Sequence record: PZ496580.1
Strand: one strand, 5' to 3'
Length of the DNA stretch: 64,000 nucleotides
Origin: a phage
Shown: piece after piece, positions 32,471 through 38,056 of the stretch
Layout: each line of letters opens with the position of its first letter
Position numbering within the stretch: position 1 is the stretch's first letter
Made by a program: the position numbers and the translations under genes
Notes under the pieces: model-generated
Told to the model about the DNA's origin: nothing
Seen by the model: the letters and a program-made list of their open reading frames with translations, nothing else
The model's database searches: none

Positions 32471-34522
32471 TTACATTTTAAATTTATCTGGCATTGCGTC
32501 TACAGATACCAGATCAGCGATAAGCTGACGTAGAGTTGCCTTATCTGCTTTCTTACGTTCGGTTTTAGCTTCGGTAATGAAGCTGGAGAAAGAAAGGTCA
32601 GAAGCAGGTTTAACAACACCTTCACGGATGAATGCATCACCGTCCGCGATCATCTCGCCAGATTCTTGTAATGCTGCCAGTTCATTTTTGTTCATAATAT
32701 GTGCCTCAATGTAATAAGTTTCTTGTGAATCCGTTGATGCCGTAGCACGAGTTACCGTATCAAAGGATAACACAACACCGCGAGGAAGTAAAATCTCGCA
32801 TTCTTTGTAAGCAAATGCCTTGTTACCTACTGGCAATACAGGGATGTTTTCCGCGCCAGCGATAGAGAAAGCAACATTAGCGCCACCTTCACCGCGAGAT
32901 CCCGCCATAGAATCAACACCAGCAACGGCACTAGCCACGTTTGCATTCCACCCACCAAAAATATTAGGTGCAAGGGAAGTGCTCACATAGTTTTTAAAGT
33001 AAAACGCTTTTTGCTTACGTGCAGTTTCCCACATTTGAGACCGGAAGTCCATACCACGATACAGAATAGTACCAGGATCAAGTTTAACGCCATAGTTAGA
33101 GAAGGCATTATCCAGTGCATCACACATCTTGACCAATTCTTCTGGGTCTGCGATGCCATCAAACTCTTCCAGCTTACGATCGGTTAGGAAGTTGTTCATA
33201 TTGATGTATGCTGCATCGGCATATTCGCTCAACACAAAACCTTCCGCGCCAGGCAGGTCAAGATCAATATCTGCCATCATTTCACCCATGTTGCTAGCAA
33301 TTGCTTCAAACATACCGGAAGCAACATTACGCAGGGCATCGGTTTTAATCTGCGTGATGTGACTACGAAGCATTTCAGCTTTTACATCTGCTGGCATAGA
33401 CTGGTCTACTCGATCCATTGCTAAGGCAGTGATCTTGTTTTCGAATACTTCCTCGTTCATGATTTCTTTTAAGCGTTTGATTGATGCTGCGATAACTTCC
33501 GCAGACAACGGATCATATTGATCCTGAACTTTTACCAGTTCGCTTACTGCGTATTTTGCATCGGCCTCGCTTTCAAAAATAGTACGCATGAAACCATAGC
33601 GAGTGATAATATCACTTGTCCAATCATTCAGAGAACGCGCGGTTGAACGTTCTAAGGCTTGACGGTCAATCAGAGTATTAAACTGTTTCTTAGGTTCGGC
33701 TTCGGTGATATCTTCTTCCGGTTTAAGATTAATTTTTTCTGGATGATTCACATAGTCGCTGTTATAGGTCGCTTGAGTTTTCAGCATTTCTTCTTTAGTC
33801 AAACGAGATTTAGCCGCTACGCGTTGTTCTGCTTCCGCGTTTCGTTCTTCTTCTGACACAAGACTAGCCGCATACGCTTCATCTTTAGTCAGAGATTCGC
33901 CAGTAGCCTTAGATACCCAGCGATCACCTAAATCACTTTCTACTTTAGTGAACAAGGATTCATCAAGTTTAATCCCTTTAATCTTATCAATCGCCATCCC
34001 GCGACGTTTGACAACAACTAAAGCGATCTTTTTGCTGGTCATTACTTCCTGCTGGAATACTTCAAACTTCGGTGTACGACGCACCAAACGCTCTATAACG
34101 CGCTTAACCAGTTCGGTCTTACCTTTCATGCGGGATACGTTAAAACGGAACATAACAGCGTCTAATTGCGCTTTACGGGCTGTTTCCATAACCACATCAA
34201 AAGCACTTGCCATAACTGCAATCGGGTTATCGCCTAGACCATTTTTAAGCTGTACAATACGACCGCTTTTGTTCATTTCGCACAGTACAACATGTGCGGT
34301 CTTGTCACCCATACGAATGATTTTAGGTGTTTTGTTGGTGAAGTTACAAAGACGGACAATCACATCTTTATCGCGTGTCTGTACTGCAAAAAGCTGTTTA
34401 GGATTCTGCTTAGGCTTTAAGCACTGTACCGGGGCAATACTGCCAAAGTTTTCTTCCTCTTCTGTCAACAGCCATTTCTCGAAAGATTCAATCATTAGAT
34501 CGTCGATTTCTAAGTTAAACAT
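32471..34522 (-). CDS. alt: Alt ADP-ribosyltransferase
   Basis: 683 aa (T4 Alt 682); R-S-E triad ILYRG, YVSTS, ECEILLPRG. Confidence 0.85.
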   Translation of the reverse strand: MFNLEIDDLMIESFEKWLLTEEEENFGSIAPVQCLKPKQNPKQLFAVQTRDKDVIVRLCNFTNKTPKIIRMGDKTAHVVLCEMNKSGRIVQLKNGLGDNPIAVMASAFDVVMETARKAQLDAVMFRFNVSRMKGKTELVKRVIERLVRRTPKFEVFQQEVMTSKKIALVVVKRRGMAIDKIKGIKLDESLFTKVESDLGDRWVSKATGESLTKDEAYAASLVSEEERNAEAEQRVAAKSRLTKEEMLKTQATYNSDYVNHPEKINLKPEEDITEAEPKKQFNTLIDRQALERSTARSLNDWTSDIITRYGFMRTIFESEADAKYAVSELVKVQDQYDPLSAEVIAASIKRLKEIMNEEVFENKITALAMDRVDQSMPADVKAEMLRSHITQIKTDALRNVASGMFEAIASNMGEMMADIDLDLPGAEGFVLSEYADAAYINMNNFLTDRKLEEFDGIADPEELVKMCDALDNAFSNYGVKLDPGTILYRGMDFRSQMWETARKQKAFYFKNYVSTSLAPNIFGGWNANVASAVAGVDSMAGSRGEGGANVAFSIAGAENIPVLPVGNKAFAYKECEILLPRGVVLSFDTVTRATASTDSQETYYIEAHIMNKNELAALQESGEMIADGDAFIREGVVKPASDLSFSSFITEAKTERKKADKATLRQLIADLVSVDAMPDKFKM

Positions 34523-34837: not shown

Positions 34838-34866
34838 ATTATAGGGGATCACCGATCCCCTGTCAA
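34838..34866 (-). promoter_or_regulatory. Early promoter cassette (PeSL-type): TTGACA-N17-TATAAT with palindromic spacer
   Basis: Minus strand reads TTGACAGGGGATCGGTGATCCCCTATAAT; spacer is a perfect inverted repeat. Confidence 0.7.
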
Positions 34867-34874
34867 CAACTTTT

Positions 34875-35393
34875 TTAGTTATTTTTTAATTGCTCATCTT
34901 GCAATAGGGCAATCACATGCTGGCGATGTTCTTCCGATTGAGGCACACCGAAAAAGTTTGTTTTGTAGAAATACTCTAATCGGTCTTCTCGTGTGCTCTC
35001 TTCCATCATGATCGCTGGTAGACCAAGATTGCGGAAACGTCGCTTTTCTGCTGGCGTAAAATCGCTGTAATACAGCATAGAATCATCATTACCAGCAATG
35101 CTAAACTCATCCTTCATGAAGGAGAATATTGCGTTTAAACGCTGTTTACCGTCCACGATTTCGATCTCATAGCGAGAGCCATCATCAATCTTAGCCATTG
35201 CGATAGCGCCTACCGGAAAATCATTAATCAGGTTTTCGATAAACATACGTTTGTTTTCTGTGTCCCATACCAAAGGACGCTGATAATCTGGGTTCATGTT
35301 GATATAGCCATCTTCTAACCATGCTTCGTAAACAGAGATGACAAAGTTTTTAGTATTGGTATAGTAACGGCGTTTAGGCGTTAAACGGTTCAT
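34875..35393 (-). CDS. DUF262 / ParB-like nuclease-domain protein
   Basis: DYQRPLVW...FPVGAI...IVDGKQRL matches the DUF262 (GmrSD N-terminal) signature. Confidence 0.6.
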   Translation of the reverse strand: MNRLTPKRRYYTNTKNFVISVYEAWLEDGYINMNPDYQRPLVWDTENKRMFIENLINDFPVGAIAMAKIDDGSRYEIEIVDGKQRLNAIFSFMKDEFSIAGNDDSMLYYSDFTPAEKRRFRNLGLPAIMMEESTREDRLEYFYKTNFFGVPQSEEHRQHVIALLQDEQLKNN

Positions 35394-35569
35394 AATGTGC
35401 TTACCTTTTCAATATATGCGTCCGCATACTGGCGAATGCTCATTTCTTCTCGTACTGCTGCTACAAATTCTTTCATGGATTCAAACCATTTGTAGGTGTC
35501 GCGATACATGACCAACTCTTCCCAAGTAAGATCGCAAATCTCTTTACCGTGTAGTTGTGGTGTTATCAT
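35390..35569 (-). CDS. Small ORF (59 aa), translationally coupled
   Basis: ATGA overlap with the downstream DUF262 gene; below track length cutoff. Confidence 0.3.
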   Translation of the reverse strand: MITPQLHGKEICDLTWEELVMYRDTYKWFESMKEFVAAVREEMSIRQYADAYIEKVSTL

Positions 35570-35901
35570 AATATAGTTCTCCTGAATGGATCATCACGTA
35601 AATCAATATCTTTTAAGAACTCATCCCATGAATGGCGGATATTGTTCTTAATTCTCCAGATAAGCGCAGGGATTGAACGCTCACCCATCTGGAAGTAAGG
35701 ATCATATGATCCGTATGCCCAATATGCTACTACAATTCCACAATCAGCGCAATAGTATTCTATCTCGCTTGCTGGCGACCAAAGTCCATCAATATGATCG
35801 GTGATCTTGCTTTCAATGTTATGACTATGGCAATTAGGGCAACGTATGCAATGACCTTGTTTATCGTAATTTGACGTTAGAGAATACTTAAACAATCTCA
35901 T
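35566..35901 (-). CDS. Zinc-ribbon protein (111 aa)
   Basis: CIRCPNCH ... CADCG four-Cys arrangement; TAATG coupling to the upstream MTase-like gene. Confidence 0.5.
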   Translation of the reverse strand: MRLFKYSLTSNYDKQGHCIRCPNCHSHNIESKITDHIDGLWSPASEIEYYCADCGIVVAYWAYGSYDPYFQMGERSIPALIWRIKNNIRHSWDEFLKDIDLRDDPFRRTIL

Positions 35902-36617
35902 TATAGATCCTTATTGGCTTCAAATACTGCCTTTGCGAATCCTCGCGGGGTAAGTGACCTGATAGTCTTTGTTCTGGTTCCTTTCCCGCCTAGCTTAGAA
36001 TGCTGTTTGCTGTACCCTTTATTAATCGGCAACGGTTTCTTTTCTGGCATTATAAAGCCTTGTCCGGTCCACAAGCAAGTCTTTTTCGGGTACATATCAC
36101 GGGAGGCAATATACTCAGGAAACGTAGGATGTATATCATCTTCCGGCAAATAACCGCCATATTCCCACGGATGGAACATGTAATCAGGCTTACGCCACAT
36201 GCTAGAGATAACGCTTACAGGATTCTCTATCATGTAGGGAACTCCTAGCCATTCACCCAAATAAGCGGTTATTTTAGCTGCCCTTACATCATGAATTTGA
36301 ATTAATGGTCCTTGCTCTCGTTTCTTTCGTTCAAAGTGTGCAGCGCCACTAACAGCTAAATTGGTGCATGGTGGGAATGCAAATATAATATCCGGTTTCC
36401 CCCATTCAAGGTCCATTGCTCTTTCCAGCCAGTTCAAATCAATCCATGTGTTTACATAGGTAATGTTTGGATGTTCAAATCGGGTATTATATTTTTTGTA
36501 TGTACCGTGGTCGCCATCGTCAGCATTAAAGCAGATCACCTTATGACCTGCTTTAGCCCATTCTAGCCCCATTATCCCCGATCCGTCAAAGTTGCAGAAT
36601 ATTAATTTTTGTTTCAT
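35901..36617 (-). CDS. Minimal C5-cytosine methyltransferase-like protein (238 aa)
   Basis: Motif I-like FDGSGIMG, motif IV DIIFAFPPC, motif VI ENP, motif IX-like RSLTPRG; no room for a target-recognition domain. Confidence 0.55.
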   Translation of the reverse strand: MKQKLIFCNFDGSGIMGLEWAKAGHKVICFNADDGDHGTYKKYNTRFEHPNITYVNTWIDLNWLERAMDLEWGKPDIIFAFPPCTNLAVSGAAHFERKKREQGPLIQIHDVRAAKITAYLGEWLGVPYMIENPVSVISSMWRKPDYMFHPWEYGGYLPEDDIHPTFPEYIASRDMYPKKTCLWTGQGFIMPEKKPLPINKGYSKQHSKLGGKGTRTKTIRSLTPRGFAKAVFEANKDL

Positions 36618-36859
36618 ATACGCCCCTTTAACCCAACACAGATTTTAGAAGGTTCTTTACCGTGCCACATTAAGTAAAGTCCGTTAGTGCGGCCTTGTTT
36701 TGTATATGATTCTTTTCTAATCTTCTTATAGTGTCGTGCTTCCTCAACCGATTGTTTAGAATACCAATCATAAAGGAAGATGAACAAAGGCCAACCATTA
36801 GCGGCCTTAATGCAGTTATTAAGAAATTCCTTATTGCGTTTAATTAATTTTCTTTTCAC
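36614..36859 (-). CDS. Hypothetical basic protein (81 aa)
   Basis: Probable GTG start overlapping upstream stop; hydrophobic core segment. Confidence 0.35.
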   Translation of the reverse strand: MKRKLIKRNKEFLNNCIKAANGWPLFIFLYDWYSKQSVEEARHYKKIRKESYTKQGRTNGLYLMWHGKEPSKICVGLKGRI

Positions 36860-37107
36860 GCTGCCCCCGTTGGTTTGATAGTAACAGAATCTAAAAGACC
36901 TTTGTTAGCCAGTTCGCGGCAAGTTTTCAGATCCGCAACTTCCCAGCCAGCCGCAATCAGGTTATCAATCAGGCTGTTAGCAACTTCTTCGCTCATGAAA
37001 GAGCACTGTTTGCCGATGGTGTAGCGTACACGCTGTAATTTCAGTTTACGGAAGCCTTTAACGTTCAGGTCTTTAGCGATTTTCTTTGCGGTTTCGATGT
37101 TAGCCAT
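36856..37107 (-). CDS. Hypothetical protein (83 aa, MANIE start)
   Basis: First gene behind promoter cassette 37148-37176. Confidence 0.5.
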   Translation of the reverse strand: MANIETAKKIAKDLNVKGFRKLKLQRVRYTIGKQCSFMSEEVANSLIDNLIAAGWEVADLKTCRELANKGLLDSVTIKPTGAA

Positions 37108-37147
37108 TGTTTGATTCTCCTAAGTAGTATCTCGTCTTGATGTGTGT

Positions 37148-37176
37148 ATTATAGGGGATGGTGTCTCCCCTGTCAA
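37148..37176 (-). promoter_or_regulatory. Early promoter cassette (PeSL-type)
   Basis: TTGACA-GGGGAGACACCATCCCC-TATAAT on minus strand. Confidence 0.7.
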
Positions 37177-37786: not shown

Positions 37787-38056
37787 TTAGATATTTTCAG
37801 AAATAAATTTTAAAACTTGACGTAAATGTTTCTCATCTTTGATAGTCGCCGGAAGTTCTTCTTTTACTTCCTGTGCAAGATAGATATTTCCGTTCCAAGT
37901 GAAAGATCCGTCTTCGTTTACGCGATAGCTGAACATCCACTCGCAATCATTTTCGATTTCATATACACACAGAAGGGTGTAATCATTAAAGCTGTTGATT
38001 TCAAGGTCGAGGCCGTGACGTTTTGCAAAGTTGGTAGTGGTTTTAGTCAATGCCAT
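37787..38056 (-). CDS. Hypothetical protein (89 aa)
   Basis: ORF behind promoter cassette 38097-38125. Confidence 0.5.
   Translation of the reverse strand: MALTKTTTNFAKRHGLDLEINSFNDYTLLCVYEIENDCEWMFSYRVNEDGSFTWNGNIYLAQEVKEELPATIKDEKHLRQVLKFISENI

Follow-up and report, generated by a model that had tools for sequence, protein, structure and literature searches.

The 64,000-nt window analysed here, a stretch of the phage record PZ496580.1 along whose whole length positions are counted, holds a run of six minus-strand open reading frames (ORFs), one of which encodes a 238-aa protein with the features of a C5-cytosine DNA methyltransferase (MTase). The operon is an ordinary early transcription unit driven by a promoter-early stem-loop (PeSL) cassette in a hyperplastic region beside alt, in a Krischvirus (RB49-like) genome. 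Judged from its sequence, the 238-aa protein, itself uncharacterised, belongs to a family of compact phage C5-MTases that is abundant and has been annotated before, and the question of annotation is settled to the extent that it is the Krischvirus member of a common, named family. The operon as a whole is likely to be an ordinary unit of accessory genes, in which the compact C5-MTase acts alone, probably on a rare and fixed site.

The family is well represented in the sequence collections. The 238-aa protein corresponds to phrog_757, ‘DNA methyltransferase’, in PHROGs (E=8.6e-91) and is 99.2% identical to its counterpart in Shigella phage JK32. A database search returned 7,329 homologues, nearly all of them 219-259 aa long, and an exhaustive profile search gave 1,977 cluster representatives, 885 of them at E<=1e-10, the full-length ones being 205-260 aa long. 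As the homologues are uniformly short, the compact size is a property of the family and not a truncation. By tblastn, members turned up in 1,521 of the 50,697 phage records, or ~3% of the phages sequenced, which include phages of Escherichia, Klebsiella, Salmonella, Campylobacter, Vibrio and Arthrobacter. The novelty implied by the sequence-only reading of this DNA was too high, since many Krischvirus records already label the gene ‘DNA methyltransferase’, C5 methylase or ‘Dcm’. A metagenomic member, P0270 (563 aa), joins an N-terminal compact C5-MTase-like domain to a D12-class Dam N6-adenine DNA MTase (PF02086, E=2.5e-48, residues 303-546), and this fusion is further evidence for DNA as the substrate of the family. 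Two other members, P0259 (414 aa) and P0265 (401 aa), carry N-terminal extensions of ~175 aa without a Pfam match.

Functional evidence on the family comes from the T1-like phage K42, a relative of KarlJaspers/Bas06. All escapers of K42 from retron Ec86 had disrupted a 711-bp ‘dcm’ gene, and such a gene is carried by 34 of the 35 Ec86-sensitive phages (bioRxiv 10.1101/2023.08.16.553469). Expressed alone from pBAD, K42 Dcm gave high levels of 5-methylcytosine (5mC) in the multicopy single-stranded DNA (msDNA), as measured by liquid chromatography coupled to mass spectrometry (LC-MS), and the signal was lost in C82A/E128A/K175A/K176A, residues that had been assigned via superposition on DNMT3A (bioRxiv 10.1101/2023.08.16.553469). 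That K42 Dcm triggers retron Ec86 (Retron-Eco1) was reported in the same study (bioRxiv 10.1101/2023.08.16.553469) and is treated as established in later papers.

The link from K42 to the window is direct. Four T1-like loci encode 236-aa family members with exactly C82, E128, K175 and K176. The protein of the T1-like locus L066 is 97.5% identical to the ‘Dcm-like C5 cytosine methyltransferase’ of KarlJaspers (MZ501090.1), and it shares 55% identity over 237 aa with the 238-aa protein (BLASTP, E=6e-91), in which the four K42 residues are found in register as C84, E131, K178 and K179. By this alignment, K42 Dcm and the 238-aa protein belong to the same family. Both are stand-alone early gene products of nearly equal length (236 vs 238 aa) and the same architecture, with the catalytic Cys/Glu/Lys-Lys set kept. 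They differ in their phage lineage, T1-like Drexlerviridae as against T4-like Krischvirus, in their neighbours, as the gene in the T1-like phages is not accompanied by the zinc-ribbon and DUF262 genes that lie beside it in the window, and in their surroundings, as CCWGG is avoided in the window but not around the T1-like genes.

The catalytic motifs named in the sequence-only reading, namely motif I, motif IV with its catalytic Cys, motif VI (ENP) and the motif-IX-like segment RSLTPRG, are real and invariant in an alignment of 41 family members. The invariant positions include F10, G12-S13-G14, P82-P83-C84-T85, E131-N132-P133, W141-R142, K178 and I219-R-S-L222...R225. In an hhalign comparison with M.HhaI, which covered motifs I-IV only and used an HhaI sequence checked against 13 published landmark residues, F10/G12/G14 fell on F18/G20/G22 and C84 on the catalytic C81. 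For motif VI, E131 aligned with K42 E128 in the sequence alignment, and by inspection the stretch I219-R-S-L-T-P-R-G-F-A-K-A-V resembles motif IX of HhaI (R272-K-L-H-P-R-E-C-A-R-V).

The claim that the protein leaves no space for a target-recognition domain (TRD) did not hold. Residues ~142-209 (RKPDYMFHPWEYGGYLPEDDIHPTFPEYIASRDMYPKKTCLWTGQGF...) form a block of ~70 aa at the TRD position, whose conservation equals or exceeds that of the catalytic core (mean pairwise identity 63% vs 59%) and which contains the Lys-Lys pair (K178/K179) to which a role in substrate binding is ascribed. As the block is conserved uniformly, one specificity may be common to the whole family. To our knowledge, the smallest TRD among C5-MTases is that of DNMT3. 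The best fold match of the 238-aa protein was DNMT3 as well, followed by DNMT3A, EhMeth, HhaI, HaeIII and M.MpeI, a ranking that Foldseek did not reproduce. The likeness to the catalytic domain of DNMT3A/DNMT3B has its limits, for the sequence identity is only ~16%, and DNMT3 has motifs VIII and X and works on CpG as a DNMT3L-assisted tetramer. With the canonical C5-MTases (M.HhaI, M.HaeIII and E. coli Dcm; PF00145), the protein shares motifs I, IV (PC) and VI (ENV-like), the motif-IX-like R-x-L-T-P-R and probably the fold class. It is ~90-230 aa shorter than these enzymes and, in contrast to them, has a collapsed spacing between motifs VI and VIII, and neither QxRxR nor a separate motif X is recognisable in it. 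The name ‘Dcm’ given to the gene notwithstanding, the protein and E. coli Dcm are not orthologues.

From the conserved residues and the canonical C5-MTase mechanism, the reaction would proceed as follows. S-adenosylmethionine (SAM) would be bound through motif I (F10-G-S-G14), Cys84 would attack C6 of the flipped-out cytosine, Glu131 would protonate N3, and the methyl group would be moved to C5. The conserved 142-209 block including K178/K179 would touch the DNA as a minimal TRD, and the enzyme would work without the zinc-ribbon or DUF262 proteins. Most likely, a rare and fixed site would be methylated on the replicating phage DNA, for which CCWGG has been proposed in the family. Such methylation would protect from type II restriction those sites that genome-wide avoidance has left over, at the cost that the MTase may be detected by sensors of the retron Ec86/Eco1 type. 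The zinc-ribbon and the nuclease-less DUF262 proteins would then be products of separate accessory genes that are co-transcribed in Krischvirus.

Several observations weigh against this account. The match of the 238-aa protein to PF00145 spans residues 10-100 only and is below the gathering score (13.5 bits against a 22-bit cut-off, E=0.048); a few of the homologues carry a precomputed PF00145 match, and the PADLOC models of type II MTases match the same N-terminal stretch at E=7e-4. Searches of the PDB with the MTase sequence (phmmer) and profile (hmmsearch) gave nothing at E<=10, and Foldseek gave only generic class-I MTase and Rossmann matches with template-modelling (TM) scores of 0.3-0.4. 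The emptiness of the former and the generic nature of the latter indicate that the family is a very divergent branch. The scan of NCBIfam found no family for either the MTase or the DUF262 protein. No separate motif X (G-N-x-V) is recognisable in the protein, whose chain ends at residue 238, and no RxR pattern of motif VIII (QxRxR) is present, the only invariant pair there being W141-R142, 10 residues past ENP. The Krischvirus protein is best called a predicted C5-cytosine methyltransferase, with an activity that is argued by analogy with its K42 homologue. The proposed target is also a matter of analogy, since CCWGG was assumed for the phage enzyme from E. coli Dcm, and what was observed is that mutation of CCTGG in the msDNA abolishes defence (bioRxiv 10.1101/2023.08.16.553469). 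The story of protection is not uniform either, as the observed/expected ratio (O/E) of CCWGG is 0.34 in the window and 1.32 in the T1-like loci of the same family. Lastly, the MTase, zinc-ribbon and DUF262 genes are tightly coupled for translation in all Krischvirus examined, which could mean a functional link specific to the genus.

The target of the family may in fact differ from CCWGG. The control msDNA from the dcm+ strain MG1655 had low 5mC (bioRxiv 10.1101/2023.08.16.553469), which is unexpected were the msDNA site an ordinary substrate of Dcm. A search of the literature found no direct measurement of the recognition sequence for any member of the family.

The chemistry of Krischvirus DNA sets limits on what the enzyme could do. 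In a 2026 study, high-performance liquid chromatography with mass spectrometry (HPLC/MS) found only canonical nucleosides in Krischvirus TB34 (PMC13390438). As TB34 carries the operon, the MTase is not a high-density modifier; methylation of every CCWGG would touch ~0.19% of the cytosines and is compatible with ‘no detectable modification’ in this phage. The same study described Krischvirus SAP, which is 99.96% identical to TB34, as having fully modified cytosines (5-hydroxymethyldeoxycytidine, 5hmdC, and gentiobiosyl-5hmdC) with no pathway identified, a profile that equals that of co-isolated Tequatrovirus phages (PMC13390438). The operon was ruled out as the cause of the difference between SAP and TB34, since its coding sequences are identical in the two. 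What sets the two apart within the region is a 79-bp PeSL cassette that SAP has in addition, immediately downstream of its DUF262 gene (locus L086, 2056-2134, against position 2055 of the TB34 locus L087), together with single-base homopolymer indels. We suspect, by inference only, that the modified DNA of SAP came from a mixed stock.

The window itself shows an extreme avoidance of restriction sites, as is expected for a phage with essentially unmodified DNA. With strands pooled, it holds no copy of CTGAAG, TCCGGA, GACATC, GAATTC, ACTGGG, AAGCTT or GGATCC, of which 26-61 copies are expected. The O/E is 0.39 for GGCC, 0.34 for CCWGG and 0.61 for AGCT, while GATC (1.10) is not avoided. Deamination of 5mC was considered as the cause of the CCWGG depletion and rejected, because CTWGG/CCWAG are depleted too.

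The 172-aa product of the last gene of the operon was called DUF262/ParB-like from its sequence, and this call was borne out by a Pfam GmrSD_N (DUF262) match above the gathering score (E=4e-20). PADLOC matches were obtained to NsnA (1e-20) and PD-T4-2_A (5e-12). The closest relatives also stand alone, with lengths of 161-176 aa. The invariant positions are Y37-Q-R39..V42-W43, D81-G-K-Q-R85 (the DGQQR equivalent) and N146..G149-V-P-Q-S-E-E-H156, in an alignment that is shallow, as the word-indexed homologue search gave 7 proteins. The protein is structurally close to BrxU and SspE, with only the best of five AlphaFold2 (AF2) models being confident. The PDB search with this protein gave only spurious matches to sliding clamps. 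The Pfam, NCBIfam and PADLOC scans found no DUF1524/HNH or other nuclease domain. On its motifs, therefore, the protein reads as a complete nucleotide-binding domain of the ParB/Srx-type DUF262 class without a nuclease, and not as a GmrSD enzyme. It shares with GmrSD, BrxU and SspE the QR..VW and DGQQR-type (DGKQR) motifs and the ParB/Srx fold, but is encoded by a phage and lacks the DUF1524/HNH nuclease domain. With 172 aa only and no nuclease domain, it cannot be a restriction enzyme alone. Stand-alone ParB folds of 100-200 aa predominate in phages (bioRxiv 10.1101/2025.10.10.680097).

A protein of this kind could serve as an anti-defence decoy, which mimics the domain for nucleotide binding and dimerisation in enzymes of the GmrSD/BrxU/SspE type, or the nuclease-less GmrS1 partner of two-gene systems, and by poisoning these shields from modification-dependent restriction the phage DNA on which the upstream MTase has placed 5mC. 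The domain is complete, with all three motifs invariant and no nuclease, it is expressed early, and its structure is close to those of BrxU and SspE; moreover, type IV systems of hosts can depend on a GmrS or ParB_n-only partner that has no nuclease (PMC12373910), and TB34 is not restricted by BrxU. The resistance of TB34 has a simpler reason in its essentially unmodified DNA, however, and the fact that its NTP-binding motifs are conserved points to an active enzyme or a switch instead of an inert mimic. Short DUF262 homologues occur in 325 records, and they include RB43-like and Klebsiella T4-like phages, in which the same short family is present without a linked MTase of the 238-aa family. 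The decoy is for these reasons considered unlikely.

A related and equally speculative proposal, made by analogy, would pair the compact MTase with the nuclease-less DUF262 protein in Krischvirus. In a ‘mark and shield’ version, DUF262 may neutralise GmrSD/BrxU-type nucleases that attack the 5mC made by the MTase. In a ‘mark and load’ version, DUF262 may activate the MTase on duplex DNA as ParB176 does for 5mYOX176, with the zinc-ribbon protein as an adaptor. The likeness to ParB176/5mYOX176 and other stand-alone phage ParB folds is that of a short ParB-fold gene beside the gene of a post-replicative DNA-modifying enzyme. The 172-aa protein differs in that it is of the DUF262 branch and not PF02195 ParBc, has no C-terminal dimerisation domain, and is linked to an MTase in one genus only.

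The sequence-only reading had also offered the zinc-ribbon protein as a specificity partner of the MTase and the three genes as one module. Taken to its full extent, this would make them a single Krischvirus machine in which the MTase provides catalysis, the zinc-ribbon protein provides or changes the specificity, and the ParB-fold DUF262 protein provides loading or activation on double-stranded DNA, comparable to an unfused form of the ParB-MTase fusions common in phages or to a ParB-activated thymine dioxygenase. The genes are joined by the TAATG and ATGA overlaps, and the trio stays contiguous in all Krischvirus records that were inspected. Fusions of ParB-fold domains to the DNA MTases of phages are common (bioRxiv 10.1101/2025.10.10.680097), a ParB homologue is the required activator of phage 5mYOX176 on double-stranded DNA (PMC13229309), and ParBc proteins are frequent in CmoX contigs. 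The neighbourhoods of the family speak otherwise. Among 80 viral-contig loci with MTase family members at 52-97% identity, 79 lie outside Krischvirus, and at none of these did tblastn detect, within 3 kb of the MTase gene, a counterpart of the zinc-ribbon, DUF262, ORF83, ORF81 or ORF59 proteins. Scans of 3,237 ORFs around the MTase loci with hidden Markov models (HMMs), phmmer and the DGxQR motif found no zinc-ribbon or DUF262 gene, and no conserved adjacent small CxxC protein was found at the non-Krischvirus loci, where the neighbours are replication genes (SNF2 and DEAD helicases, PolA and primase-helicase).

The converse test gave the same answer. The 111-aa zinc-ribbon protein matches Pfam Zn_Ribbon_TF below the cut-off (E=1.3e-4) and phrog_2993 at 1e-33, and the PDB search with it gave noise only. 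Its homologues are found in 296 phage records, for example in Nonagvirus SP8, where the ORFs around it are small, and in Felixounavirus VpaE1, where the genes of DHFR and thymidylate synthase lie next to it, without an adjacent MTase in either; VpaE1 has no MTase of the 238-aa family in its whole genome. At the DUF262 homologue of RB43 there is no MTase or zinc-ribbon neighbour. The longer members of the MTase family contain no ParB or zinc-ribbon fusion, the Dam fusion being the only one, and the zinc-ribbon and DUF262 genes can be parted by insertion of the 59-aa ORF. Because the tests of neighbours tell against a link in both directions and the K42 homologue methylates when expressed alone, neither the specificity partner nor the module could be upheld, and a single machine is decidedly improbable; the three are best taken as independent accessory genes co-transcribed in one genus.

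It is most improbable that the 238-aa protein adds another C5 group, either carboxymethyl from carboxy-SAM (Cx-SAM) or hydroxymethyl, and thereby opens a cytosine hypermodification pathway possibly tied to the modified DNA of SAP: the K42 homologue gives 5mC by LC-MS, the coding sequences in SAP are those of the canonical TB34, and the SAP profile, shared with its co-isolated Tequatrovirus phages, needs synthesis at the level of the deoxynucleoside triphosphates. In CmoX, Arg replaces the motif X Asn (HhaI N304) and binds the carboxylate of Cx-SAM (PMC12783734). The 238-aa protein has no motif X, and residue 229, its sole N304-like candidate, varies among K, R, A, D, E, N and S; as neither Arg nor Lys is conserved at the corresponding position, a CmoX-like use of Cx-SAM was ruled out.

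The MTase family ranks with the smallest C5-MTases, its members having a TRD of ~70 aa and lacking motif X, and it triggers retron Eco1. The methylome of one member would set the specificity for thousands of phage genes and would shed light on the way in which DNA is read by a minimal C5-MTase. The remaining interest lies in this recognition sequence and the mechanism of DNA reading, and in the role of the nuclease-less phage DUF262 proteins.

The features of the operon are collected in Table 1. All six ORFs of the sequence-only reading are present on the minus strand at exactly the coordinates it gave, and the overlapping stop/start codons were read off at all five junctions, which in operon order are GTGA, ATGA, TAATG, ATGA and ATGA. 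Its single early promoter cassette ahead of the six ORFs was likewise confirmed, with all 12 positions of the sigma-70 consensus matched at 37176-37148.

Table 1. Coordinates of the operon and its boundaries in the window
Feature	Position	Strand	Details
PeSL-type early promoter driving the operon	37148..37176	-	TTGACA, 17-nt spacer with GGGGAGACACCATCCCC stem, TATAAT; 12/12 consensus
ORF83, conserved small phage protein, phrog_14908	36856..37107	-	E=2.5e-58; stop overlaps next start (GTGA)
ORF81, GTG-initiated small protein, phrog_7065, variable accessory gene	36614..36859	-	PHROG match; absent in JK32
Predicted 238-aa compact Dcm-like C5-cytosine DNA methyltransferase	35901..36617	-	Motif I F10-G14, P83-C84, E131-N132-P133, TRD-like block ~142-209 including K178-K179, motif IX-like R220-R225
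111-aa zinc-ribbon protein, phrog_2993	35566..35901	-	C20-x2-C23 ... C51-x2-C54; coupled to MTase gene via TAATG
59-aa ORF, rare accessory insertion between zinc-ribbon and DUF262 genes	35390..35569	-	ATGA overlap at each end
172-aa stand-alone DUF262 (GmrSD_N, ParB/Srx fold) nucleotide-binding domain protein, no nuclease domain	34875..35393	-	
Next PeSL cassette, 3' boundary of operon and start of following unit (ORF87)	34838..34866	-	12/12 consensus, GGGGATCGGTGATCCCC stem

Near-consensus sigma-70 promoters (TTGACA-N17-TATAAT with at most one mismatch) are numerous in the window, with 15 between 14357 and 62271, all on the minus strand, where 1.04 are expected. The GGGG...CCCC spacer stem of the PeSL type is present in six of the 15 (34838, 37148, 37392, 41148, 42296 and 52986). 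PeSL cassettes are known from RB49/phi1, where they border the ORFan genes of hyperplastic regions and shuffle them, and their stems serve as terminators or attenuators (PMC2839356). On the 3' side of the operon, an 87-aa ORF that has its own promoter is followed by alt (32471-34522; ADP-ribosyltransferase, phrog_802, 8e-180). More than 55 Krischvirus (RB49-like, Straboviridae) genomes match the 3-kb region at 96-97% identity.

The six-gene make-up of the operon is not fixed across Krischvirus. DNA of the 59-aa ORF was found only in phages kaaroe (MN850574.1) and FL04 (PP358550.1), and the ORF is missing from GEC-3S, TB34, SAP and JK32; it belongs to no family of Pfam or PHROGs and lacks a separate PeSL. 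JK32 also lacks ORF81, and its ORF83 abuts the MTase gene directly. Several Krischvirus genomes have an additional unit of a PeSL and an ORF 3' of the DUF262 gene.

Two minor observations concern the 5' side. Residues 12-75 of ORF83 show a weak PADLOC match (E=2.5e-5) to positions 722-785 of the 938-position model RT_UG35, a defence-associated reverse transcriptase. Two promoter cassettes upstream of the operon lies an 89-aa ORF (37787-38056, minus strand; phrog_6147), whose homologues (47-65% identity) lie 1-2.6 kb upstream of a gene of this MTase family, and in the same orientation, at ~20 T1-like loci (L031-L033, L046, L050-L057, L062, L066, L067, L070, L071, L073, L075, L076 and L078), so that its co-localisation with the MTase gene recurs across unrelated phage families.

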